DNA from: Candidatus Bathyarchaeia archaeon
GTDB lineage: Archaea; Thermoproteota; Bathyarchaeia; 40CM-2-53-6
Assembly (NCBI GenBank): GCA_035935655.1
Contig: DASYWW010000046.1
Location: forward strand, 90,709-154,708
Reading direction: 5' to 3'
DNA: 64,000 bases
Program-made: the position numbers and the translations under genes
Part shown: one piece after another, positions 24,229 to 56,658 of the stretch
Layout: each line of letters starts with the position of its first letter
Numbering within the stretch: the first letter of the stretch is position 1
Notes under the pieces: model-generated
Seen by the model: only the letters and a program-made list of their open reading frames with translations
What the model was told of the DNA's origin: nothing
The model's database searches: none

Positions 24229-25005
24229 TTGCGCAAGATTGCTGAGGGGGTTTACAGGGTTCCTGCTCGAGCGGCCAACACCTACCTTGTTGAGGCTCCA
24301 AAAGGTCTCGTGTTAGTGGACAGCGGTCTGCCCGGGAGCGAGAAGGGAATTCTCAAGGCCGTCGCAAAACTCGGAAGGAAACCTTCGGACCTGAAGCTTG
24401 TACTGTTGACTCATCGGCACCTGGACCATATCGGGAGTGCGGCTGCTTTGAAAAAACAGACAGGAGCGAAGCTGGCTTCTCATCCCTTTGAGAAGCCATA
24501 CGCGGCTGGGACTCTCGTGATAACGGCTCCGAGTGCTTGGAGCTTCTATGGAAGAATGGTGAGAAGGCTTACAACGCTTGAATATTGGTCGTTGAAGCTT
24601 TTTCGGATTATCAAGTTTCATACGACTAAGGTGGATCTCGCTGCGGACGAAGAATTTGTGTTGGAAGAAGTGGGTTTGGATGGGTCTGTGATCTGGACGC
24701 CTGGACATACGAAGGGGTCGGTTACGCTGTTTCTTAACCAGCCAAGTGTAGCCATTGTCGGGGATCTCGTTAGAGCTCGTCGTGGCCGGCTTGTGGAGCC
24801 GTTGTTAATGGAGAGTATTCCTCAGACCGGGGCGAGCATTAGACGGGTCTTGGATCTGGGTCCAGAGATTATCTGTCCGGGGCATGGCAAGCCGCTTCCG
24901 GCGTCCAAGGTCAAGGTCAAAGCGCGTGCGGTAAAGCCTGTGGCCGTAGCGAAGAAAAAGGAAGAGGAGGAAGACTTGGAGGAGCTAGCGTCTGGCCTTT
25001 TCTAG
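24229..25005 (+). CDS. MBL-fold metallo-hydrolase
   Basis: 'LTHRHLDHIG' HxHxDH motif. TTG start. The low-complexity acidic C-tail is encoded antisense to the SOD 3-prime fragment. Confidence 0.8.
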   Translation: MRKIAEGVYRVPARAANTYLVEAPKGLVLVDSGLPGSEKGILKAVAKLGRKPSDLKLVLLTHRHLDHIGSAAALKKQTGAKLASHPFEKPYAAGTLVITAPSAWSFYGRMVRRLTTLEYWSLKLFRIIKFHTTKVDLAADEEFVLEEVGLDGSVIWTPGHTKGSVTLFLNQPSVAIVGDLVRARRGRLVEPLLMESIPQTGASIRRVLDLGPEIICPGHGKPLPASKVKVKARAVKPVAVAKKKEEEEDLEELASGLF

Positions 25006-25080
25006 CCGCTTCTCGACATCGTCCCAGCTGACAACGGTCAGCCGAGCATGAATGTAGTTCGCCAGTCGTTCTTCTTTAGG
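24985..25080 (-). pseudogene. Orphan 3-prime fragment of a superoxide dismutase gene (last ~25 codons plus stop)
   Basis: The minus-strand translation '...NYIHARLTVVSWDDVEKRLEKARR*' matches the intact SOD C-terminus '...AYVDAWWNVVNWDDVEKRLEKARR*' at 25725..25800. There are many synonymous differences. Confidence 0.65.
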
Positions 25081-25157
25081 TCACCCAGGCGTATAATTCT
25101 GATAGATCGAGTCGAATAGTTTCGTCGACCAGTGCGAGAAAAGACGATCTCAAGCAA

Positions 25158-25679
25158 ATGGGTCCATTCTGTAACAGGGACATGCAGAAGTCAGCGGTCT
25201 TCAGCATTCGTGCTCGAAAGAAGAAAATTCAAGGTCAGGTAACACGAGCTCTTCGTTGCGGAGAGGACCGAGCTTGGTTGGCGGGAATCATAGAGGGCGA
25301 GGGGTCAGTTCTCTGGGCAAGTTACGGGAATGACGAGTGGCGTGCGAAGATTAGCATCATAATGAATGATCGAGCGGTGATTGCATATGCGGCGAGACTG
25401 ATGGAAGCAACTCCTTTCTACGACAAGAAGAGGAAACGTTGGCATACTTACGCGGAAGGATTCCGAGCAGTCCAAGTAGCCAAACTAACTGGTCCTCACA
25501 TGCACGGTCAGAAGAAGGAGCTAGCACTCGCTTTGGTTACCGCGGGACACGTTTTCAGGGGACGAGAGCCGCCGTGGCACTTCAGATTGGCCTATGACAA
25601 TGACCTTCAGAAGAATGTTAGAACTCTGGAAATGTCTCCGGCTTCTAGAATTGAAGTTGCAGAATCTCTGGCGCCTTGA
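25158..25679 (+). CDS. Free-standing LAGLIDADG-family homing endonuclease (single-motif type)
   Basis: The 'LAGIIEGEGSV' motif is followed by a basic ~150 aa body. It lies between the orphan SOD fragment and the intact sod gene, on the opposite strand to sod. Confidence 0.6.
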   Translation: MGPFCNRDMQKSAVFSIRARKKKIQGQVTRALRCGEDRAWLAGIIEGEGSVLWASYGNDEWRAKISIIMNDRAVIAYAARLMEATPFYDKKRKRWHTYAEGFRAVQVAKLTGPHMHGQKKELALALVTAGHVFRGREPPWHFRLAYDNDLQKNVRTLEMSPASRIEVAESLAP

Positions 25680-25724
25680 AGAGGACAAAAATGAAAAAGG
25701 GTTCGAGTTTGGGGGGGCGCGCGT

Positions 25725-26333
25725 CTATCGTCTGGCTTTTTCAAGACGCTTTTCGACGTCGTCCCAATTGACGACGTTCCACCAAGCGTCGACATATGCG
25801 GCTCTATCATTTCGGTATTGCAAGTAGTATGCGTGTTCCCAGACGTCGAGGACGAGTATTGGGACTACTCCTTGTACCGTTAGGTCGTTGTGTTTCTCGG
25901 CCTGGAGCGTGATCAATTGCTGGGTCCACGGTTCGTATGCTAGGACAGCCCAGCCGCTTCCTTCAACCTGTTTGGCGGCGGTGCCGAATTGTTCTTTGAA
26001 CGATTCCCACTTGCCAAAGTCAGTGTTGATCTGGTCTGCTATCTTGCCGCCTGGTTTTCCTCCAGCGTTCGATTTCATGTTGGGCCAGAAAGTGCTATGC
26101 ATTGTGTGGCCTGAACCGTGGAAGGCGAGGTCTCGCTCGATTGCTTTGATGTCGACGCCGGCGAACCCGGTCTCGCGCGCCTTCTGCAGCTTGTCCAGGG
26201 CGGCGTTTGCGCCGTTTACATAAGCGAGATGGTGTTTGTCATGATGTAACCGCATGATCTCCTCGCTTATTGTCGGGACGAGGGCGTTGTACGCGTAAGG
26301 AAGGTCAGGTAGCTTGTACCGATGATGTGGCAT
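25725..26333 (-). CDS. sod: Fe/Mn superoxide dismutase
   Basis: 'HHDKHH', 'GSGW', 'DVWEHAYY' metal-ligand motifs across 202 aa. Confidence 0.9.
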   Translation of the reverse strand: MPHHRYKLPDLPYAYNALVPTISEEIMRLHHDKHHLAYVNGANAALDKLQKARETGFAGVDIKAIERDLAFHGSGHTMHSTFWPNMKSNAGGKPGGKIADQINTDFGKWESFKEQFGTAAKQVEGSGWAVLAYEPWTQQLITLQAEKHNDLTVQGVVPILVLDVWEHAYYLQYRNDRAAYVDAWWNVVNWDDVEKRLEKARR

Positions 26334-46442: not shown

Positions 46443-46778
46443 TCATGAAGAAGGACGCTGTTCTCGAAACGCCGTTATCTTCCGCGCATCATTGTAGGCC
46501 AATGTGATCAATTCCTTCGCCTTCTCGACATCTCCCTCGGATCGTACATGGAAGGTAACCCATCCGGCCCGTGCCGGTGTAAACCGGTGCCTCTCAGCCT
46601 TGCCTTCACGAAGCACCCGCTCTTGGTCCTCGCGCGACAAGTGAATGTCCAGATATCTCGGGCCATGGCTGTGCATGAACTGGCGACCGTTGACCTGATA
46701 TTCAGTTCCGCCAAAACTATGCGGTCCTTCAACAACACCCGGCAATTGTAACAACCACTCTCTCAATCCACTAGTCAT
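46443..46778 (-). CDS. Small conserved hypothetical protein (possibly DUF5519/luciferase-domain-like)
   Basis: 'GGTEYQVNGRQFMHSHG...LDIHL' pattern; weak recall only. Confidence 0.25.
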   Translation of the reverse strand: MTSGLREWLLQLPGVVEGPHSFGGTEYQVNGRQFMHSHGPRYLDIHLSREDQERVLREGKAERHRFTPARAGWVTFHVRSEGDVEKAKELITLAYNDARKITAFREQRPSS

Positions 46779-50710: not shown

Positions 50711-50896
50711 TTACGAATCCCCTGCCGCCTTCCGCCACGTTGACCCGCAGAGGCTGCAGTTGTGGAAACCGTCTACCGTAAAGCATCGAGCGATCTGCCC
50801 GCATACCGGGCAATGGTGGATAGGATCGTATGCGATAGCTTCGACTTGCGCGGCTGATCCGAGGTCCATTGAGCCCCTTTCTTCGCTTGCTTGCAC
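50711..50896 (-). CDS. Small zinc-ribbon protein
   Basis: 'CPVCG...CSLCG' pair of CxxC motifs. Confidence 0.25.
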   Translation of the reverse strand: MQASEERGSMDLGSAAQVEAIAYDPIHHCPVCGQIARCFTVDGFHNCSLCGSTWRKAAGDS

Positions 50897-51305
50897 TTTG
50901 CTCTCCCTCTTACCTGATCTGATTCCTCAGGTTGGACAGGTAGGCCTGGTTTCGTTTACGCTCGATTTCTGCAAGGAATCTCGGACTCATGGTACTCCTG
51001 ACGAAGAGTTTTGTCTGCGGGACCCTTGGAGGAATTGGAATGCTAGTGCGGCTGCTCTTTGACGCTCCTGTTGAAGGGATGAGCGCCGAGATGAAACTGT
51101 GAACGCTTCGTGTGATTCTCGTCCAATCTTCTCTAACTGCCATTTCTTTTTCACCTAAGTGAAGGAGGACGTGTTCGTTGCGGATTATCTTTGAGCCGTC
51201 CTGCGCTGGTAGTTATTTTGCCGTCGTCCAACTGGTATTAGTTGCTGGCGTACGCCGGCACACCGGTTATATGCCCGTCTTACGATAACAACTCTCGTTC
51301 ATATC

Positions 51306-52124
51306 ATGTTCGAGTTGTTCTTCCGGTTTCAGCCGGGTCCCGGGCACGGAGATTCCTACAACGAGCTCACAGAGAAATTTCCGACAGCACGGTTCTCGCT
51401 CTGGTGTAATGGTGGTACGGATGTTCTGGAGATAGAGGCTGCTGGTCTCGCTTCGTATGAGGAGTTGCAGAAGGAGATCACCGCGACCACGAAGGCGCAT
51501 CTTGATGGGAAGATTATCTCAAGGACGTACTGCCAGGACAAGTTCCAGTTGGTGGCAAGGACTTGTTGTTGCGGTTCTGATCACAAGGGGACGCCGATTA
51601 GTCCGATTATTAACCGGAGCGGCTTCATGCGAATTCCACCGCTAGTTATGGCCGGAGGATGGGAGTACCACCGTTTGGTAGGATATGATGATAACGATCT
51701 GAAGGGTCTCCTCAGGGGATTGGACAGGATCGGGACCGCGGAAGTGCTGCACAAGAAGAGTGTCACGGAAGGAATGACCGACGACACATTTCTCTTGTCA
51801 CTGAGCAGTTTGTTTGGACAGTTAACAGAGAAGCAGATGAGGGCGCTGGTGACCGCGGTGGAAAACGGGTACTACGAGATTCCGAAAAGGGTCACTGCGG
51901 ATGAATTGGCTCGGAAGCAGGGGCAGCCCAGGAGCACCTTGGAGGAGCATATTCGGAAAGCTGAGAGCAAGATTGTGCTGGCGATGGCCCCGTACATGAT
52001 GATGTACGCAAGGGTCCCGGAGAATCCATTGTTGAACAAGACGAAGGCCGCAGGAGCGACTGTGGGCGGGAGAATGATGAAGCAGGTTGCTATGCAGATG
52101 GCCGCCAAGAAAGCGAACAACTAA
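51306..52124 (+). CDS. HTH_10 (Bat/bacterio-opsin-activator-type) transcriptional regulator
   Basis: C-terminal 'LTEKQMRALVTAVENGYYEIPKRVTADELARKQGQPRSTLEEHIRKAE' is the HTH_10 domain. Confidence 0.6.
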   Translation: MFELFFRFQPGPGHGDSYNELTEKFPTARFSLWCNGGTDVLEIEAAGLASYEELQKEITATTKAHLDGKIISRTYCQDKFQLVARTCCCGSDHKGTPISPIINRSGFMRIPPLVMAGGWEYHRLVGYDDNDLKGLLRGLDRIGTAEVLHKKSVTEGMTDDTFLLSLSSLFGQLTEKQMRALVTAVENGYYEIPKRVTADELARKQGQPRSTLEEHIRKAESKIVLAMAPYMMMYARVPENPLLNKTKAAGATVGGRMMKQVAMQMAAKKANN

Positions 52125-52136
52125 CGAGCATCAGCA

Positions 52137-53039
52137 TCATGCCGATGACTTCACTCTGACTTTCTTGTGTCCTCGCGATTTCGATGGAACCCATCCGCCA
52201 TCCTTGGTACGTTTGTAGCCATCATTGTAGTATTTTCCGAAGTCGGTGGGGTTGAGGAAGGCCTCTGCCGGGACAAGAGCGCCCCACCCTCGTCCTCTCA
52301 TGAAAATCTCGTTGAAATCGGGATTATGGATTAGATCTTTGGCGTTGTCGGGGCGGTCGTGCCATACCTCCATGTCAAGTATACGCAGGACTTCCCCCCG
52401 ATCCGCGATAAGCTGGGACGCATCGTCTGGCCCTGTTGGCTTTCCAATAAGATCCCCCCGGTTGACCGTCACTTCTTTGTCGTTGAATCTGAGGGTTCCC
52501 GACCCGTCGAGGATCAGATAGTATTCGTCGACTTCGCTGTGGCTGTGGAGTCGAGCAGATGATTCACCATTTTCGATCACTTCGACCCTGAAGGCCGCCC
52601 GGCCGATCCCGAGTAGCGGATTGAGGAACCGTGTATAGTATCCTTCCCGTTTCCTCGTTAGCGAGCTTTCAGATCCATCTAGACGGCTATCATCAAAGAC
52701 GTTTACGACTGGCTTCCTCCAAAGGTTCTCTGAAAGCACTCCGTCCTTCTTCAGGTAAACCTCGCTCGACCAGAAAGATGCTAATCTTAACAGGAAATCC
52801 ATCGCCTGCTCACTTAGAGAGGGTATGGTCAGAGTCAGCACATCGACGGAGTTCCGGTTCAGGTTTCCTGCCTTCCTGCCCAGCTCGTCCCAGAGCCAAT
52901 TAGCAAACGGCAGCAGCCTCCCACCATGTCCTTCAGGTATGGTTGGCTTCTCAAAGAACAGGGTCCAAGCTAGGTCTACCCTTATCGCTCCTTCACGGAC
53001 GGCTTCCTCGAGAATCAGCTTCATGAGCGGACAATCCAA
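52137..53039 (-). CDS. Cupin-domain protein with an N-terminal domain of unknown function
   Basis: 'HSHSEVDEYYLILDGSGTLRFNDKEVTVNRGDLI' conserved cupin barrel. Confidence 0.5.
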   Translation of the reverse strand: MDCPLMKLILEEAVREGAIRVDLAWTLFFEKPTIPEGHGGRLLPFANWLWDELGRKAGNLNRNSVDVLTLTIPSLSEQAMDFLLRLASFWSSEVYLKKDGVLSENLWRKPVVNVFDDSRLDGSESSLTRKREGYYTRFLNPLLGIGRAAFRVEVIENGESSARLHSHSEVDEYYLILDGSGTLRFNDKEVTVNRGDLIGKPTGPDDASQLIADRGEVLRILDMEVWHDRPDNAKDLIHNPDFNEIFMRGRGWGALVPAEAFLNPTDFGKYYNDGYKRTKDGGWVPSKSRGHKKVRVKSSA

Positions 53040-53070
53040 GAAGGTGTTGAAGAGGGTTTTCCTCTTGAGA

Positions 53071-53253
53071 GAGGAGGATATTCAGAAGGCTGAGAGCAAG
53101 ATTGTATTGGCTATGGCGCCGTACATGATGATGTACGCAAGGGTCCTGGAGAATTCTCTGTTGAACAAGACGAAGGCTGCGGGGGCAACGGTTGGCGGGC
53201 GGAGGCTGAAGCAAGTGGCTAGGCACATTACTGCGAAGAACAAGAACGCATAG
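53071..53253 (+). pseudogene. Orphan 3-prime fragment (~60 codons) of an HTH_10 regulator gene. It forms a direct repeat with 51943..52124.
   Basis: Translation '...EEDIQKAESKIVLAMAPYMMMYARVLENSLLNKTKAAGATVGGRRLKQVARHITAKNKNA*' matches copy 1 '...EEHIRKAESKIVLAMAPYMMMYARVPENPLLNKTKAAGATVGGRMMKQVAMQMAAKKANN*'. There is no HTH domain upstream. Confidence 0.65.
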
Positions 53254-53308
53254 CGCAATTGTTCTAACTGCAGTCAGGAGTTGCGGTCTCGGACTTACTG
53301 TGTGCCGT

Positions 53309-53728
53309 TCAGCCGTTGTCTTCCGTCAAGATTACGACGGGGATTTCCCGTTTAGTCTTAAGCTGGTAGTCGCCGTACGCCGGGTACATCTCGGTCAGCA
53401 ACGGCCAGAAATCGCTTTTCTCTTCCTCTGATGCCTTTCTCCCAATCATCGTCTTCTTTCTTCCCTTTATCTGGACCTCTGCGTGCGGATCGTGTCTAAG
53501 GTTTGTCCACCAGGAGGGCTCCCTGTCGCTGCCACTATTAGATGCGACTATGATGATGCGCTCGCCGTCTCTAAGGTAGAGAAGGGGCGTTGTCCTCTTC
53601 TTGCCTGCCCTACGCCCGATGGTTGTTAACAGAAGGACTGGCGCATTCCATAACCGGCCTCCTATTCTTCCTCTCGAGACGCGGTAGAATGACACGTGGG
53701 TCCTACTGAAGAGTCTCTGGCCTTTCAT
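53309..53728 (-). CDS. Deazaflavin (F420)-dependent nitroreductase-family oxidoreductase (DUF385/Ddn-like)
   Basis: 'PVLLLTTIGRRAGKKRTTPLLYLRDGERIIIVASN' family signature. Confidence 0.6.
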   Translation of the reverse strand: MKGQRLFSRTHVSFYRVSRGRIGGRLWNAPVLLLTTIGRRAGKKRTTPLLYLRDGERIIIVASNSGSDREPSWWTNLRHDPHAEVQIKGRKKTMIGRKASEEEKSDFWPLLTEMYPAYGDYQLKTKREIPVVILTEDNG

Positions 53729-53873
53729 CCGGCATCCCGTACTGTCTTGTCGCGTTGGTGTTGTTCCTTAAAGCTCCGCAGCCGAGAGCTTCAGCATAGC
53801 CTAGTGTCGGTGTAGACCGGGATTTTCGGCTTTTCCTGGGGACGGACGCCTGTCTTGTAGAGCCGGTAGACAT

Positions 53874-54062
53874 CTATCCGGAGGTTAGCATCAACTGCTG
53901 CAGCTTCATCGGCGCATTCTCTTTTCCGTCCCACGCCTCCCAGGCTGCAACCACCTCCCGCACGAACCCCGGAGCCAACCCGATCTCATCCAGCAAAGAC
54001 CATCCTATTCCCATTCTCCACAGGGTAGAACATAGACGGGTAAGCACCCCGAAACTACTCAC
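53874..54062 (-). CDS. Small conserved hypothetical protein (paralog of 35936..36208)
   Basis: 'IGLAPGFVREVVAAWEAWDGKENAPMKLQQL'. It lies 23 nt downstream of the glutamate-synthase-like operon. Confidence 0.3.
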   Translation of the reverse strand: MSSFGVLTRLCSTLWRMGIGWSLLDEIGLAPGFVREVVAAWEAWDGKENAPMKLQQLMLTSG

Positions 54063-54084
54063 GATCTCTGTGGCGCGCGACTCG

Positions 54085-56658
54085 TTAGGCCAGCTCTTGT
54101 AGAGAGGTGGGTATTATCTTCCGATAAACTTCTTCCGGTCTCACGTGTTTTCGATGGATCGTCAAGAGATCACTGTTCACTGATATCCCAAATAGTTCTT
54201 CGTTTCTTTCTAGCAAAGGCGAGATCAATTGCCAGTCCTTCGCTGTGAAGTCCGTTAGTCGTCCACCGTTCAATTGATCGCTCGAAACTTTTCGGTGGGG
54301 GTCCCTGATGAATATCGCTCCACCAGAGGCTAGTGAGAACAAGTTGCTTCCCGGATATGGGAACTCTTGCTCCACGAATCGTCCATCAATCGATGGTTTC
54401 AACCCGTTGAGAACAACGAACCCGCCACCATTGTACAGGTCTCCTGCCATGAACGATTCTGCAAGATAATCCAGACACGTCCCATTGATCACGACTCTTG
54501 GTCGACCAACCGCGTTGATGAGGGGGCGTCCGGCTGCGTTGCCGAGCACGTACACATCACCGCCCTTTGCTGCGTACATAAACGCCTGGCCTACGTCACC
54601 GTGAACCACTAGTTTTCCGTACTTGAGGATCTGCGCGGCCTGGTCCTGAGCAGCTCCATGAACCGTGATCTCGCATCCATCAATGCCCGACGCGACGTAA
54701 TCCCCGACATCCCCGTAGCAGTCGATCTTCAAACCATTCGTTTGTGGACCGAGACCGCTTCCGATGAATCGGTGGCCGCGGAGGTTGTAGAGTAGAATGT
54801 TCTTCCAGCCTTGACCGTACGCATTAACCACGAACCGGGCGGCGCTCTCTTCTCCTTCGGCGGGAAACTCTAGCGCGTCGACAACCAGTACCTGCGAGTC
54901 GAATAGTGGATGGATCAGTCTAGTTTTGTTCTTCCAATCGAGTCGAATGTACAGGTCGTAGTTCGATAGTGAAACAACGGAGAACACGTCGTTCAACGCT
55001 TCATGGTACAGTTGCAGTAGTGAGCTTCGTTTCTTCTGCCCTGTGTCGTAGATTCTATCGTAGAGTAGTGAGAGTGATTTTATCGCGAATTGTCGGGACT
55101 CTTTTCCCTTCTTAGCCAGTCTTTTCAGTTCTTCAAGAATCTCTCCCACATACTGGAAGCCAGCATCCCTCAGCGCGGGACGAACATACTCATAGAATCC
55201 CAACGGGTCCTGCGTACTGGGACCCTTCTGCAGCTGAATCGCAATACTCGCGTTCAAAGAGACACTAGACCCTGCTTGAGGCAACCAGTCTTGCTTGAGA
55301 AGATCGATAACCTTTCCAAACTTGTCAGCACACTCCAACTCCTTCCCATCCTCTCCATCTCTGACAGTAAAGAGAAACGCTCCGCCATCCGTGAAGCTTC
55401 CACCCCTCGCATTCCAGTACGAGTCTGCAAACCTGCTGGGTATCTTCTGATCTTCTTGCAATTTTCCGAGAACAGCATTAATCGCTTGTCTCTCTGATGC
55501 AATGATCCCGATCTTGATCGGCCCCTCCTGAACAGCAAACACTTGGGGTCTCAGCATCGACGTATCAGTAATCCCGATCAACTGCCACGCATTCTTCTCC
55601 ACGTCATTCCGCGCAACGATGAAGAACCATGGGCCGTCAGGGGACCCGTGAATATGCGTCGACTGTATCAATCGGTAGATCTGTTTCTTCTCCTCCGGCA
55701 GCATCTCAAAATCTCTCTCCGTTGTGGGTGCCAGAGCTTCAATAAGATACTCAAGCGGATACTTGTAGACGCGGCTGAGAAGATCGAATAGTAACACTGA
55801 GACCTCCGTATCCGTCAAGAATAACGGGTGAATGTTCCTCTGGGCTAGATATTCCACTATGGAATGATAATTCGCAAAATCCCCGTTATGCACCAAGGCC
55901 TCATGCAATCCCACGAACGGATGCGCGCCACCAGGATGCCAGACCCTGCCCTTCGTCGGATACCGATGATGACCAATCCAGACATGAGCCTTGAAATTTT
56001 CTAGCTGATAATACCTGACGACATCATCCCCAAAACCCACCAGCTTCAAAACAACCATGTTCTTTCCATGGGACACGACGAAGGCCTTCTTCTTGCCCAG
56101 CGACGAGTAATACCGCTGATTCAGTCGGTAAGAGTTCTGATAGAGAAATTCATCTTCAACCTCGTTTTCCTTGAGCCCTTCTAGACCATTCAAACGGGCA
56201 AAGTTTGCAAGAGCATTTCTTTTGATCTTCACAAAGTATCTGTAAACTTCAGGCGGTTCAACCTCAAGACCAGAAATCGAGTGATAATCGTCGACAGAAT
56301 CCACTCTTGCCTCATGATCAACGGCAAAGAATGGTCGAATATGCTCGTCCTCGACCTGTTTTCTAACAGATTTATCGAGGTAGGCAACCTGTAAGATGTA
56401 ATCCTCATCCAGAATTTTCTTGGAAACCCCTAACTGTTCCGGGACCAATCCGACAGCCGCAATTCCCCCGCCCTTACCATTTCCCCTGTTCCGCATCTGG
56501 ACGAGGGACTGGAGGAGATATTTTCCTTCGAGTGGAGCATTACATGCCAAACCGACAACGCCGCATCCACCCTCGGCCTCCTGCTTGCCCACCGGGACCC
56601 TGTCGACTGGCAGTGATTTTCTTGAATCGATAATTTGTTGTCCGGGCAATGTTCTCAC
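54085..56658 (-). CDS. Glutamate-synthase-like protein fusing a class II (Ntn) glutamine amidotransferase domain with a GXGXG (GltB domain 3) beta-helix domain
   Basis: N-terminal 'GGCGVVGL' places the catalytic Cys at the mature N-terminus. C-terminal repeats 'GSGLGPQTNG...CYGDVGDYVASG...VHGAAQDQAAQ...VHGDVGQAFMY...VLGNAAGRPL'. Confidence 0.75.
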   Translation of the reverse strand: MRTLPGQQIIDSRKSLPVDRVPVGKQEAEGGCGVVGLACNAPLEGKYLLQSLVQMRNRGNGKGGGIAAVGLVPEQLGVSKKILDEDYILQVAYLDKSVRKQVEDEHIRPFFAVDHEARVDSVDDYHSISGLEVEPPEVYRYFVKIKRNALANFARLNGLEGLKENEVEDEFLYQNSYRLNQRYYSSLGKKKAFVVSHGKNMVVLKLVGFGDDVVRYYQLENFKAHVWIGHHRYPTKGRVWHPGGAHPFVGLHEALVHNGDFANYHSIVEYLAQRNIHPLFLTDTEVSVLLFDLLSRVYKYPLEYLIEALAPTTERDFEMLPEEKKQIYRLIQSTHIHGSPDGPWFFIVARNDVEKNAWQLIGITDTSMLRPQVFAVQEGPIKIGIIASERQAINAVLGKLQEDQKIPSRFADSYWNARGGSFTDGGAFLFTVRDGEDGKELECADKFGKVIDLLKQDWLPQAGSSVSLNASIAIQLQKGPSTQDPLGFYEYVRPALRDAGFQYVGEILEELKRLAKKGKESRQFAIKSLSLLYDRIYDTGQKKRSSLLQLYHEALNDVFSVVSLSNYDLYIRLDWKNKTRLIHPLFDSQVLVVDALEFPAEGEESAARFVVNAYGQGWKNILLYNLRGHRFIGSGLGPQTNGLKIDCYGDVGDYVASGIDGCEITVHGAAQDQAAQILKYGKLVVHGDVGQAFMYAAKGGDVYVLGNAAGRPLINAVGRPRVVINGTCLDYLAESFMAGDLYNGGGFVVLNGLKPSIDGRFVEQEFPYPGSNLFSLASGGAIFIRDPHRKVSSDQLNGGRLTDFTAKDWQLISPLLERNEELFGISVNSDLLTIHRKHVRPEEVYRKIIPTSLQELA

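Follow-up and report, generated by a model that had tools for sequence, protein, structure and literature searches.

Organisation of the regulator and cupin locus

The window, i.e. the complete 64,000-nt stretch of Bathyarchaeia DNA analysed here, carries a regulator gene whose 3' end recurs on the far side of a convergently oriented cupin gene. The features of the locus and of the two novel junctions are as follows (related loci are numbered with an L; where no strand is given, none applies).

50711-50896, − strand: small CxxC...CxxC ORF
50730-52110: conserved two-gene module, consisting of the small CxxC...CxxC ORF and the regulator gene
51306-52124, + strand: regulator gene, 272 aa
51942-52124, + strand: copy 1, the functional regulator 3' end (final codons KKANN*, TAA, at 52111-52124)
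52125-52136: regulator/cupin convergent spacer of 12 nt, homologous by alignment to the junction in L102 and L106
52137-53024, − strand: Cupin_2 gene (Pfam), 295 aa when started at the ATG at 53024, whereas the mechanical ORF extends to a TTG at 53039
53025-53070, − strand: retained cupin-upstream sequence of ~45 nt, homologous to the spacer that, in L012, L102 and L106, separates a DUF1579-like gene from the cupin gene
53064-53076: left novel junction, …GGGTTTTCCTCTTGAGAGAGGAGGATATTCAG…, where cupin-upstream sequence is joined to the start of the regulator tail at a microhomology, CTTGGAG(A/G)AG / GAG run
53071-53253, + strand: copy 2, a decaying orphan regulator 3' end (ends KNKNA*, TAG)
53071-54091: block of 1,021 bp comprising the orphan tail, the F420 gene and the small ORF, colinear with relatives in which the F420 gene follows the regulator
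53309-53728, − strand: F420H2-dependent quinone reductase gene (F420 gene), 139 aa; Pfam F420H2_quin_red over its full length, E=1e-43
53791-54062, − strand: small ORF ('..DEIGLAPGFVREV..WEAW..') with a 1-nt deletion at ~53887/53888
54085-56658, − strand: glutamate-synthase-like (gltS-like) gene, 857 aa, with GXGXG and GATase domains (Pfam)
54086-54091: right novel junction, TAGGCC, at the stop codon of the gltS-like gene; the sequence joining the small ORF to this gene is …GGCGCGCGACTCGTTAGGCCAGCTCTTG…

The regulator comprises an HVO_A0563_N domain (E=1.5e-10) followed by an HTH_10 domain (E=8e-18), each of which exceeds its Pfam gathering score. Bat proteins of the PAS/GAF kind are different, and the label "Bat-type" given to the regulator in the first-pass annotation was dropped. 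Its 102 homologues were from Bathyarchaeia wherever the source names them. The cupin gene (303 homologues, the best at 84–87% identity) belongs to a family that is widespread in soil archaea. It had been placed at 52137–53039 with 300 aa; the gene and its strand were confirmed, and the start is probably the ATG at 53024 used in homologues.

A repeat search returned a single direct-repeat family, in which 51942–52118 matched 53071–53247 (177 nt, 82% identity, spacing 1129), and self-blastn identified 51942–52096 versus 53071–53225 (84.5%, E=1e-37) as the sole long internal repeat of the whole window. Clear similarity between the copies spanned ~169 nt (51942–52110 and 53071–53239) with a longest exact run of ~28 nt, while the final ~13 nt of the repeat were more divergent, with copy 1, and not copy 2, deviating from all 34 distinct homologous tails. 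Each copy was in frame with its own stop codon (TAA at 52122–52124 and TAG at 53251–53253). The repeat search, self-blastn and translation thus bore out the earlier description of a ~82% identical repeat of the regulator 3' end around the cupin gene with separate stops. Copy 2 was also found to be an orphan gene tail, as first proposed, since it starts within the last helix of the HTH_10 domain and no regulator sequence lies 5' of it. A tblastn extension of copy 2 to 52990 (52990–53070, regulator residue 193) was attributed to chance, as it overlaps the conserved cupin N-terminus and the upstream spacer.

The arrangement was present in two Logan contigs from a single run, SRR12347814, possibly also the source of the window itself. 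Contig L001 corresponded to 51181–53185 at 100%, spanning the cupin/copy-2 junction and running 115 nt into copy 2, and L108 corresponded to 53162–54946 at 100%, spanning copy 2, the F420 gene, the small ORF and the gltS-like gene. Since together they cross every junction at 100%, mis-assembly is unlikely. A chimera of two strains assembled at a shared tail might be suspected because strain mixtures of these archaea, with many variants, are common in the same soils and because both Logan contigs break within copy 2. We regard this as exceedingly improbable, however, given that contigs carrying regulator, cupin and 115 nt of copy 2, or copy 2, F420 gene and gltS-like gene, each matched at 100%, that the copies have no exact run beyond ~28 nt, and that a join at a shared repeat would yield one tail and not two.

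Two versions of the locus and their junctions

Related loci presented two arrangements, each of which accounted for part of the window. Locus L102 (7682–5970) was contiguous with window positions 51312–53025 at 83% nucleotide identity, with the regulator 95% identical at the amino acid level, and L106 was contiguous with 51681–53067. In both, the regulator and cupin genes converge at the same junction, the regulator likewise ends in KK[A/V]NN*, and the orphan tail was absent; thus the cupin gene and copy 1 would represent an older unit instead of a new cassette with a target duplication, and the cupin gene is probably not a freshly inserted cassette. The terminal codons of copy 1 were common only to the clade in which the cupin gene adjoins the regulator (L102, L105 and L106 end in KK[A/V]NN*). 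Among the fetched loci, a gltS-like gene was found near the regulator only in this clade (L102 and L105, at 87%), and it was absent from L002–L101 by tblastn.

The second arrangement matched the DNA on the other side of the cupin gene. By blastn, the block at 53071–54091 aligned with L019 (712–1722) at 82% without a break, and 53071–53732 matched L022, L026 and L082 at 83%. The first-pass annotation had predicted an empty site with the regulator directly followed by the F420 gene, and this order was found in 12 related loci, L019 included. The F420 gene was intact and under purifying selection (dN/dS of ~0.09–0.13 relative to L019 and L022), and the small ORF was frameshifted relative to intact homologues of 81–86 aa in alignments to L019, L013 and L012, with an identical sequence in L108. 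Within the block, to judge from these comparisons, only the F420 gene looks maintained.

The left junction was compared side by side in the window, L106, L102 and L012 and against the tail starts of L019, L003, L022 and L006. Homology to the cupin-upstream sequence of L012, L102 and L106 ended exactly where tail homology began; the DNA to the left was colinear with L102 and L106 and the DNA to the right with L019 and the other loci in which the F420 gene follows the regulator. At the right junction, TAGGCC was common to the sequence upstream of the small ORF (L019, L003, L012) and to the stop-codon region of the gltS-like gene (L102, L105). The microhomologies were short, at only 6–8 nt. No recombinase, transposase or endonuclease domain was detected by Pfam in the larger ORFs between 43 and 62 kb, in agreement with the earlier statement that no integrase or endonuclease is visible, the repeat search gave no terminal inverted repeats, and tRNA and Rfam scans of the window and L035 gave zero matches.

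Three types of element were rejected on these grounds: a tRNA-type integration target (no tRNA or Rfam match in the window or L035), an integron gene cassette (borders without inverted repeats, no integrase, mixed gene orientations) and a mobile element with a target-site duplication or att site (no recombinase or transposase, no inverted repeats, and copies with different lineage markers).

These comparisons suggest that the repeat is probably the scar of illegitimate recombination, possibly facilitated by homology, between two versions of the locus that had diverged in related soil Bathyarchaeia. Version 1, seen in L102, L105 and L106, combines a regulator ending in KK[A/V]NN* with a convergent cupin gene, and the gltS-like gene lies a few kb further on; version 2, seen in L019 and 11 further loci, has a regulator ending in KNKNA*, with the F420 gene directly after it and then the small ORF. 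A version-2 piece that begins ~180 nt 5' of the regulator stop would, in the window lineage, have been joined just upstream of the cupin gene at the GAG-rich microhomology, while its other end would have been fused, at TAGGCC, with the region around the gltS-like stop codon. Because both versions contain the regulator 3' end, the recombinant has two tail copies, of which copy 1 still belongs to the gene and copy 2 is a passenger that decayed afterwards.

We infer the enzymology and the order of events, and two routes fit. In the first, a single double-illegitimate or template-switch event would have placed the block in a genome of version 1, with loss of whatever genes lay from the cupin gene to the gltS-like gene; this route leaves unexplained why the block derives from the orthologous locus and landed 0.9 kb from the resident tail. 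In the second, two successive homology-facilitated illegitimate recombinations would each have used the regulator as homologous anchor, the last bringing in the regulator 3' end and the cupin gene and displacing the resident tail. None of the related loci showed the intermediate that this second route requires, in which the regulator would be followed by the F420 gene, the small ORF and finally the gltS-like gene.

By either route, the cupin gene likely lost its former upstream partner gene. Since the F420 gene is now its same-strand upstream neighbour, at a distance of 285 nt, it may be transcribed by read-through from that gene. There was no obvious promoter in 53025–53070 upstream of the cupin gene, and promoter and terminator scans of the spacer between the F420 and cupin genes were at chance level.

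Origin of the two copies and decay of copy 2

Nucleotide identities among the tails (82–89%) are compressed by synonymous saturation, and we thus used codon-level markers and counts of synonymous and nonsynonymous differences instead of building a tree from the 169-nt tails. Copy 2 shared its terminal codons and its TAG stop with all, or most, of the 34 distinct homologous tails, while copy 1 had the end of the cupin clade. Synonymous sites differed at 0.30–0.34 between copy 2 and the L019, L003 and L022 tails and at 0.52 between copy 2 and copy 1, in tail-only comparisons that cover ~36 synonymous sites and of which none was individually significant (copy 1 versus copy 2 site patterns, p=0.18). 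Over longer segments, site patterns placed the upstream region, gene body and copy 1 toward the L006 type (129:75) and copy 2 with the F420 gene toward the L022 type (41:62), a discordance (Fisher p ~3e-4) that could stem in part from recombination in the reference loci and not in the window lineage. No crossover switch point was visible in the site patterns within 50733–52110, and no parent nearer than ~84% nucleotide identity was found. As the closest sampled relative is only ~83–84% identical at the nucleotide level, the parents themselves are not in the sample, and the resident and incoming pieces are not assignable.

Copy 2 had eight unique nonsynonymous changes (53077, 53084, 53147, 53155, 53204, 53222, 53229 and 53230) at sites that were invariant in the 34 distinct homologous tails, conserved Pro residues being among the altered positions, compared to pairwise differences of 0–3 among functional tails; copy 2 is thus decaying. 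The same changes weigh against its retention for a function, whether as a small protein (46-aa MAPYMMMYARV...), as a promoter or 5' leader of the cupin gene or as an antisense element. In translation, the middle of copy 2 still resembles the regulator tail, and the antisense RNA of the interval from the F420 gene to the cupin gene folds somewhat better than shuffled sequences (z=-2.5), but such a fragment was conserved in no other lineage among the related loci and the promoter and terminator scans were at chance. Overall, we consider retention for function highly improbable.

The first-pass annotation had also raised the decay of a tandem paralog, with the cupin gene replacing its 5' part. 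On this view the regulator, whole or in its 3' part, would have been duplicated in tandem in situ, after which the second copy would have diverged and lost its 5' part; the direct-repeat geometry and the presence of a second HTH_10 gene near the cupin gene in L012 and L102 would agree with this. That second gene, however, is a paralog only 34–36% identical and has no long tail, so that it cannot be the source of copy 2. Tandem orthologs were present in 0 of ~100 loci, copy 2 was colinear with the F420 gene as in the 12 loci in which that gene follows the regulator, and it was synonymously nearer to version-2 tails than to copy 1. By our own estimates, neutral drift of copy 2 throughout the divergence of the two copies would have produced ~40 changes where ~11 unique ones were seen, and synonymous to nonsynonymous differences stood at 19:10 versus the ~0.66:1 expected under the same model. 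This origin was refuted in its original form, and we judge any version of it very unlikely.

Recurrence at the regulator 3' end and comparison with known systems

A second regulator-tail duplication was observed in L035/L083, where a 1.83-kb insert lies between 104-nt repeats (76% identity) of the regulator end. The left side of this insert was colinear with L038 and the right side with L059, and the junction fell in a GCGACCGTT microhomology and truncated another gene; it is a second, independent scar of the same type as that in the window. The breakpoints lie ~183 nt before the regulator stop in the window and ~69–80 nt before it in L035. A 255-nt segment next to the L035 orphan tail, which is also present in L012, L028 and L055, was considered as a mobile or RNA element and rejected, as it is the 3' part of a protein gene that is truncated in L035 (window homologue at 46443–46778, − strand). 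Separately, contig L097 (VBBT01000153.1) of MAG BA_25 begins 6 nt into the tail and runs on into the F420 gene.

The conserved two-gene module was present in more than 60 related loci, with homology that began at 50730–50733 and stopped at 52110/52111 in nearly all of them (blastn). The flanks varied on both sides, with at least 13 upstream and at least 8 downstream contexts among the related loci, which we read as general loss of gene order at 75–85% nucleotide identity. Mobility of the module itself was rejected: its left edge is simply where the small CxxC ORF ends, the hairpins beyond that point differ, and there are no terminal repeats.

The first-pass annotation had raised the possibility of cassette insertion that targets gene termini and regenerates them. 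A dedicated process of this kind, acting at the regulator 3' end or at gene ends in general, would be comparable to integrase att sites in tRNA genes or to insertion driven by homing endonucleases. In keeping with this idea, tail duplications arose independently twice at the same gene (window and L035/L083), the BA_25 contig begins 6 nt inside the tail, the window also has a sod 3' duplication of similar appearance, and at least 8 different contexts are found downstream of the regulator. Against it, no recombinase or endonuclease occurs in or near the insert, the breakpoints are unequal, the repeats diverged before they were joined and carry differing lineage markers, the junctions are plain microhomologies (one of them truncating a gene), and the regulator/cupin unit occurs without any repeat. 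The recurrence at the regulator is an ascertainment effect, as the search covered the regulator tail only, and upstream contexts are equally variable. We therefore regard a dedicated process as very unlikely. The mechanistic part of the proposal was not supported as first worded, given the tail-less L102 and L106, the differing markers of the copies and the microhomology junctions. The outcome that it described, namely the joint arrival of a neighbouring gene and a working 3' end in place of the old one, may hold as a by-product of recombination between diverged versions of the locus, without dedicated machinery.

The ORF between the sod 3'-end repeats is LAGLIDADG-like, and the sod case, first taken as the same phenomenon, thus looks mechanistically different. 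Free-standing homing endonuclease genes can carry a replacement 3' end of the host gene, as in Allomyces atp6, where the old terminus persists as a pseudogene fragment. By analogy, such terminus replacement may well apply to sod; between the regulator-tail repeats, in contrast, there is only a Cupin_2 gene and no endonuclease fold or motif (Pfam).

It is very doubtful, in our estimation, that the regulator 3' end is a recurrent, possibly nuclease-provoked exchange point at which the downstream gene is swapped and the terminus regenerated. The two tail duplications, the BA_25 contig break, the at least 8 downstream contexts and the LAGLIDADG-like ORF with the duplicated sod terminus are observations that fit such a point. 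If real, it would offer soil Bathyarchaeia a natural landing pad where single-gene cassettes could be received without an integrase.

Recombination of the favoured kind, between diverged versions of the locus, has experimental counterparts. Homology-facilitated illegitimate recombination (HFIR) is described in the naturally transformable bacteria Acinetobacter, S. pneumoniae and P. stutzeri. In HFIR, foreign DNA enters via one homologous anchor and is sealed at its other end at a microhomology of 3–10 bp (PMC6382021). Integration in this way and by double illegitimate recombination has been demonstrated experimentally in bacteria (PMC6382021 and PMC12359135, with reference to de Vries & Wackernagel 2002, Prudhomme et al. 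2002, Meier & Wackernagel 2003 and Hulter & Wackernagel 2008); for the double event, PMC12359135 cites Hulter & Wackernagel 2008. A join that falls inside the anchor region of the recipient duplicates part of the anchor; L035/L083 fits this exactly, and the left junction of the window fits if the regulator was the anchor. Here, in contrast, the event is read from comparative sequence of uncultured archaea, the parents are ~17–25% apart at the nucleotide level, and a second illegitimate junction is needed. Double illegitimate recombination or template switching leaves microhomology at both ends with resident DNA deleted, and the 1,021-bp block has exactly that anatomy. Such double events are very rare in experiments, and derivation of the block from the orthologous locus would be a coincidence unless homologous pairing helped.

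Other known systems resembled the locus in part. At rhs/cdiA loci, a new 3' end arrives with its downstream gene and the old 3' end is left as a promoterless orphan; the exchanged C-terminal modules there are toxin domains that diverge strongly and are paired with immunity genes, which gives the swap a selective rationale. The window tails, in contrast, are orthologous (80% at the amino acid level), with an orphan in decay and, as associated genes, metabolic ones that are unrelated. As at att sites and transposon target-site duplications, direct repeats of a gene 3' end flank DNA and the gene is intact, but the window has no integrase, transposase or inverted repeats, the repeats are 169 nt long and diverged beforehand, and breakpoints vary from case to case.

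No new mechanism is revealed at this locus, which is an ordinary recombination scar and not a dedicated cassette-insertion system. As a lesson for annotation, a "cassette bracketed by repeats" misleads as to which gene moved. The locus documents gene-order remodelling in an uncultivated archaeal lineage with both parental arrangements sampled, in which a short piece of a neighbouring lineage's locus would have been joined at microhomologies, carrying a useless gene fragment along. Orphan 3' ends could thus be natural markers of illegitimate recombination, and a genome-wide count of them would estimate the frequency and route of single-gene acquisition, here of an F420H2-dependent quinone reductase.

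The regulator-tail repeat and the genes around it

The 3' end of the regulator gene was the sole long internal repeat found by self-blastn of the whole window (E=1e-37), and a repeat search delimited it as a direct repeat at 51942-52118 and 53071-53247 (177 nt, 82%). Both copies (copy 1, the end of the regulator gene itself, and copy 2, an orphan tail beyond the cupin gene) are in frame, each with its own stop codon. Regions 51181-53185 and 53162-54946 were 100% identical to two Logan contigs, both from a single run (SRR12347814) that is possibly also the source of the window; since these contigs span every junction, a chimeric assembly is unlikely. The repeat around the cupin gene described in the first-pass annotation was thus borne out, and Pfam confirmed the regulator, cupin and F420 genes it had placed there.

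Features around the repeat
51306-52124, plus strand: regulator gene (HVO_A0563_N plus HTH_10, Pfam)
52137-53039, minus strand: Cupin_2 gene (Pfam), likely start codon ATG at 53024
53309-53728, minus strand: F420H2-dependent quinone reductase gene (F420 gene; Pfam)
53791-54062: small ORF (DEIGLAPGFVREVVAAWEAW..), frameshifted by a 1-nt deletion at ~53887/53888
54085-56658: glutamate-synthase-like gene, stop codon at 54085

The regulator had 102 homologues, from soil Bathyarchaeia wherever the source names the organism, and the tail of ~60 residues after the HTH was conserved in its ortholog group. We fetched 100 loci around these relatives and compared them with the window. Common to the regulator loci was a module equal to 50730-52110, in which a conserved spacer separates a small CxxC ORF from the regulator. 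The ~575 bp 5' of the regulator (50711-51305) showed 75-80% nucleotide conservation in all orthologous loci, with equivalents in more than 60; the 61-aa ORF (50711-50896, minus strand), which is divergent from the regulator and carries two CxxC pairs, had no Pfam match. Contexts outside this two-gene module varied on both sides, with at least 13 upstream contexts; in one locus (L011), HTH_45 and 166-aa genes lie downstream of the module, and the same genes lie upstream of it in the window.

Genes 3' of the regulator in the 100 fetched loci
22 loci, directly 3': small ORF ('..IGLAPGFVREV..WEAW..'), the commonest 3' neighbour and the family of the ORF at 53791-54062; no Pfam match
12 loci, directly 3': F420 gene, the empty site predicted in the first-pass annotation
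15 loci: 375-aa gene
9 loci: internally deleted F420-gene remnant
Remaining loci: other contexts

The remnant (L042, 3716-3950; L044, L050-L052, L054, L063, L065 and L084) retains residues ~2-20 and ~113-134 in about 130 nt, is followed by a PLP-enzyme-like gene, and is a further gene-fragment scar at the regulator locus. One contig (L097, positions 1-171; VBBT01000153.1, MAG BA_25) lacks the regulator body: its first base lies 6 nt inside the tail (equivalent to window 51948), and the F420 gene follows; this could reflect plain fragmentation, or an assembly-graph branch from a similar orphan-tail structure or strain variation.

Two versions of the locus and the putatively captured block

The contexts of the closest cupin homologues were examined. 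In L102 and L106 the regulator is convergent with the cupin gene, and the orphan tail is lacking. L102 matched the window at 83% over 1,714 contiguous bases (regulator protein 95% identical), L106 was contiguous with it from 51681 to 53067, and the regulator/cupin junction was homologous in all three. The regulators of these loci end in KK[A/V]NN before the stop codon, as copy 1 does and differently from all other tails, and the last 13 nt of copy 1 were present only in the clade with a cupin gene next door. By these alignments the cupin gene is probably not a newly inserted cassette. Further 5' of the cupin gene in L012, L102 and L106 comes a DUF1579-like gene, followed by a distant HTH_10 paralog (34-36% identity), beyond which L102 and L105 have the same glutamate-synthase-like gene as the window; this gene was found in 0 of the 100 regulator loci. 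The cupin partner set in relatives (L012, 3165-6192; L102, 4586-6873; L105, 4612-6551) comprises the DUF1579-like gene, a Glycolipid_bind gene and the HTH_10/HVO_A0563_N paralog (34-36% to the regulator), in varying order and orientation; all are lost from the window.

Window 53071-54091 was matched by L019, in which the regulator is followed by the F420 gene, in a single unbroken alignment (82%) running from copy 2 across the F420 gene and the small ORF; the F420 gene therefore adjoins copy 2 just as it adjoins the ordinary regulator end in such relatives. At the left junction, the spacer 5' of the cupin gene remains homologous to L012, L102 and L106 until ~53070-53073 and tail homology begins at 53071, with CTTGGAG(A/G)AG in both partners. 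At the right, homology to the region 5' of the small ORF (L019, L003, L012) runs until ~54091 and homology to L102/L105 sets in with the glutamate-synthase-like gene's stop codon (54085), with TAGGCC in both partners. The window thus holds a 1,021-bp block bounded by two microhomology junctions, in place of the 3.6-4.4 kb that separates the cupin gene from the glutamate-synthase-like gene in L102/L105.

Sequence comparison indicates that the two copies are derived from different lineages. Copy 2 ends in KNKNA and TAG, like all or most of 34 distinct homologous tails, and the proportion of differing synonymous sites was 0.30-0.34 relative to the L019, L003 and L022 tails and 0.52 relative to copy 1. 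At sites separating L006-type from L022-type loci, the upstream region, gene body and copy 1 leaned toward the L006 type (129:75), whereas copy 2 and the F420 gene leaned toward the L022 type (41:62; Fisher p ~3e-4); the tails alone pointed in the same direction, not significantly (10:5 vs 8:13). Synonymous and nonsynonymous differences between the copies stood at 19:10, compared to the ~0.66:1 that we estimate for neutral drift of copy 2 throughout divergence, which makes in-situ duplication hard to fit. Decay of a tandem paralog, the alternative offered in the first-pass annotation, is refuted.

Copy 2 carries 8 nonsynonymous changes absent from all 34 distinct homologous tails, hitting both conserved prolines of 'RVPENP'; functional tails differ among themselves by 0-3. 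Compared with its intact homologues (81-86 aa) in L019, L013 and L012, the small ORF is frameshifted, and its deletion was also present in L108, a Logan contig matching the window. The F420 gene is intact (dN/dS ~0.1) and appears to be the sole part of the captured block still maintained.

Possible recombination routes and other duplicated gene ends

The window repeat probably arose when illegitimate recombination joined the two diverged forms of the locus and carried the orphan tail along. Either of two routes would fit. A single double-illegitimate or template-switch event could have placed the block into an L102/L106-type genome; or two homology-facilitated illegitimate recombinations could have occurred in succession with the regulator as anchor, the last bringing in the regulator 3' end and cupin gene and displacing the resident tail. 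The closest sampled relative was about 83-84% identical in nucleotides, and the intermediate of the successive route was not found among the sampled loci. Homology-facilitated illegitimate recombination is known from experiments with transformable bacteria, where the joins carry microhomologies of 3-10 bp (PMC6382021), and so is double illegitimate recombination (Hulter & Wackernagel 2008, as cited in PMC12359135).

In L035 (2745-4780) and L083 (2169-4204), the regulator 3' end has been duplicated independently, on either side of a 1.83-kb insert. The direct repeats (104 nt, 76%) comprise the regulator's last 69 nt and 35 nt past the stop; between them are a 375-aa coiled-coil/beta-rich gene and a second gene truncated to its 3' part. 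On the left the sequence is colinear with L038-type loci, on the right with L059-type loci, and the junction lies within GCGACCGTT, a microhomology that occurs both in the truncated gene and in the tail of the regulator. This is a textbook product of a homologous anchor and one illegitimate join inside the anchor region.

A process targeting gene termini, as suggested in the first-pass annotation, is neither needed nor supported: breakpoints differ between the window and L035/L083, the copies had diverged beforehand, and recurrence at the regulator is an ascertainment effect because only its tail was searched for. What stands of that proposal is its outcome, in that a new functional end with its neighbour gene would displace the old end under successive recombination. 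Consistent with the earlier remark that no integrase or endonuclease was visible, Pfam found no integrase, transposase or endonuclease in the larger ORFs of 43-62 kb; a repeat search found no inverted repeats at the borders, and the window had no tRNA or Rfam match.

The superoxide dismutase case (24985-26333), which the first-pass annotation set beside the cupin case as another gene flanked by a duplicated neighbour end, appears to differ in kind.

Features of the superoxide dismutase case
25725-26333, minus strand: Fe/Mn superoxide dismutase gene (sod)
25158-25679, plus strand: ORF between the two copies of the sod end, with an invariant 'AWLAGIIEGEGSVLWA' motif

The last ~63-78 nt of sod recur at 24985-25062 (79% nucleotide identity), the orphan tail translating as ANYIHARLTVVSWDDVEKRLEKARR and the real end as AAYVDAWWNVVNWDDVEKRLEKARR, each before a stop codon. 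The intervening ORF matched Pfam LAGLIDADG_3 below threshold (E=0.2), and all 50 PDB fold matches listed for its AlphaFold model (pLDDT 60) belong to the LAGLIDADG family, almost all of them homing endonucleases (best E=4.5e-3, TM 0.3-0.4). These features suggest a free-standing gene of the homing-endonuclease type with a regenerated sod terminus, a mechanism unlike that of the cupin/F420 case. It is an old arrangement: the gene order recurs in L109-L116, and L109, where the orphan tail was checked, has it.

A likely consequence is that the cupin gene has been parted from its former upstream partner; the F420 gene, in the same orientation, is now 285 nt upstream of it, and the cupin gene may be transcribed from there. 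The window repeat is best read as an ordinary recombination scar, though a well-resolved one, and belongs to a phenomenon already known; its modest interest is as evidence from nature that uncultured archaea capture genes through microhomology.
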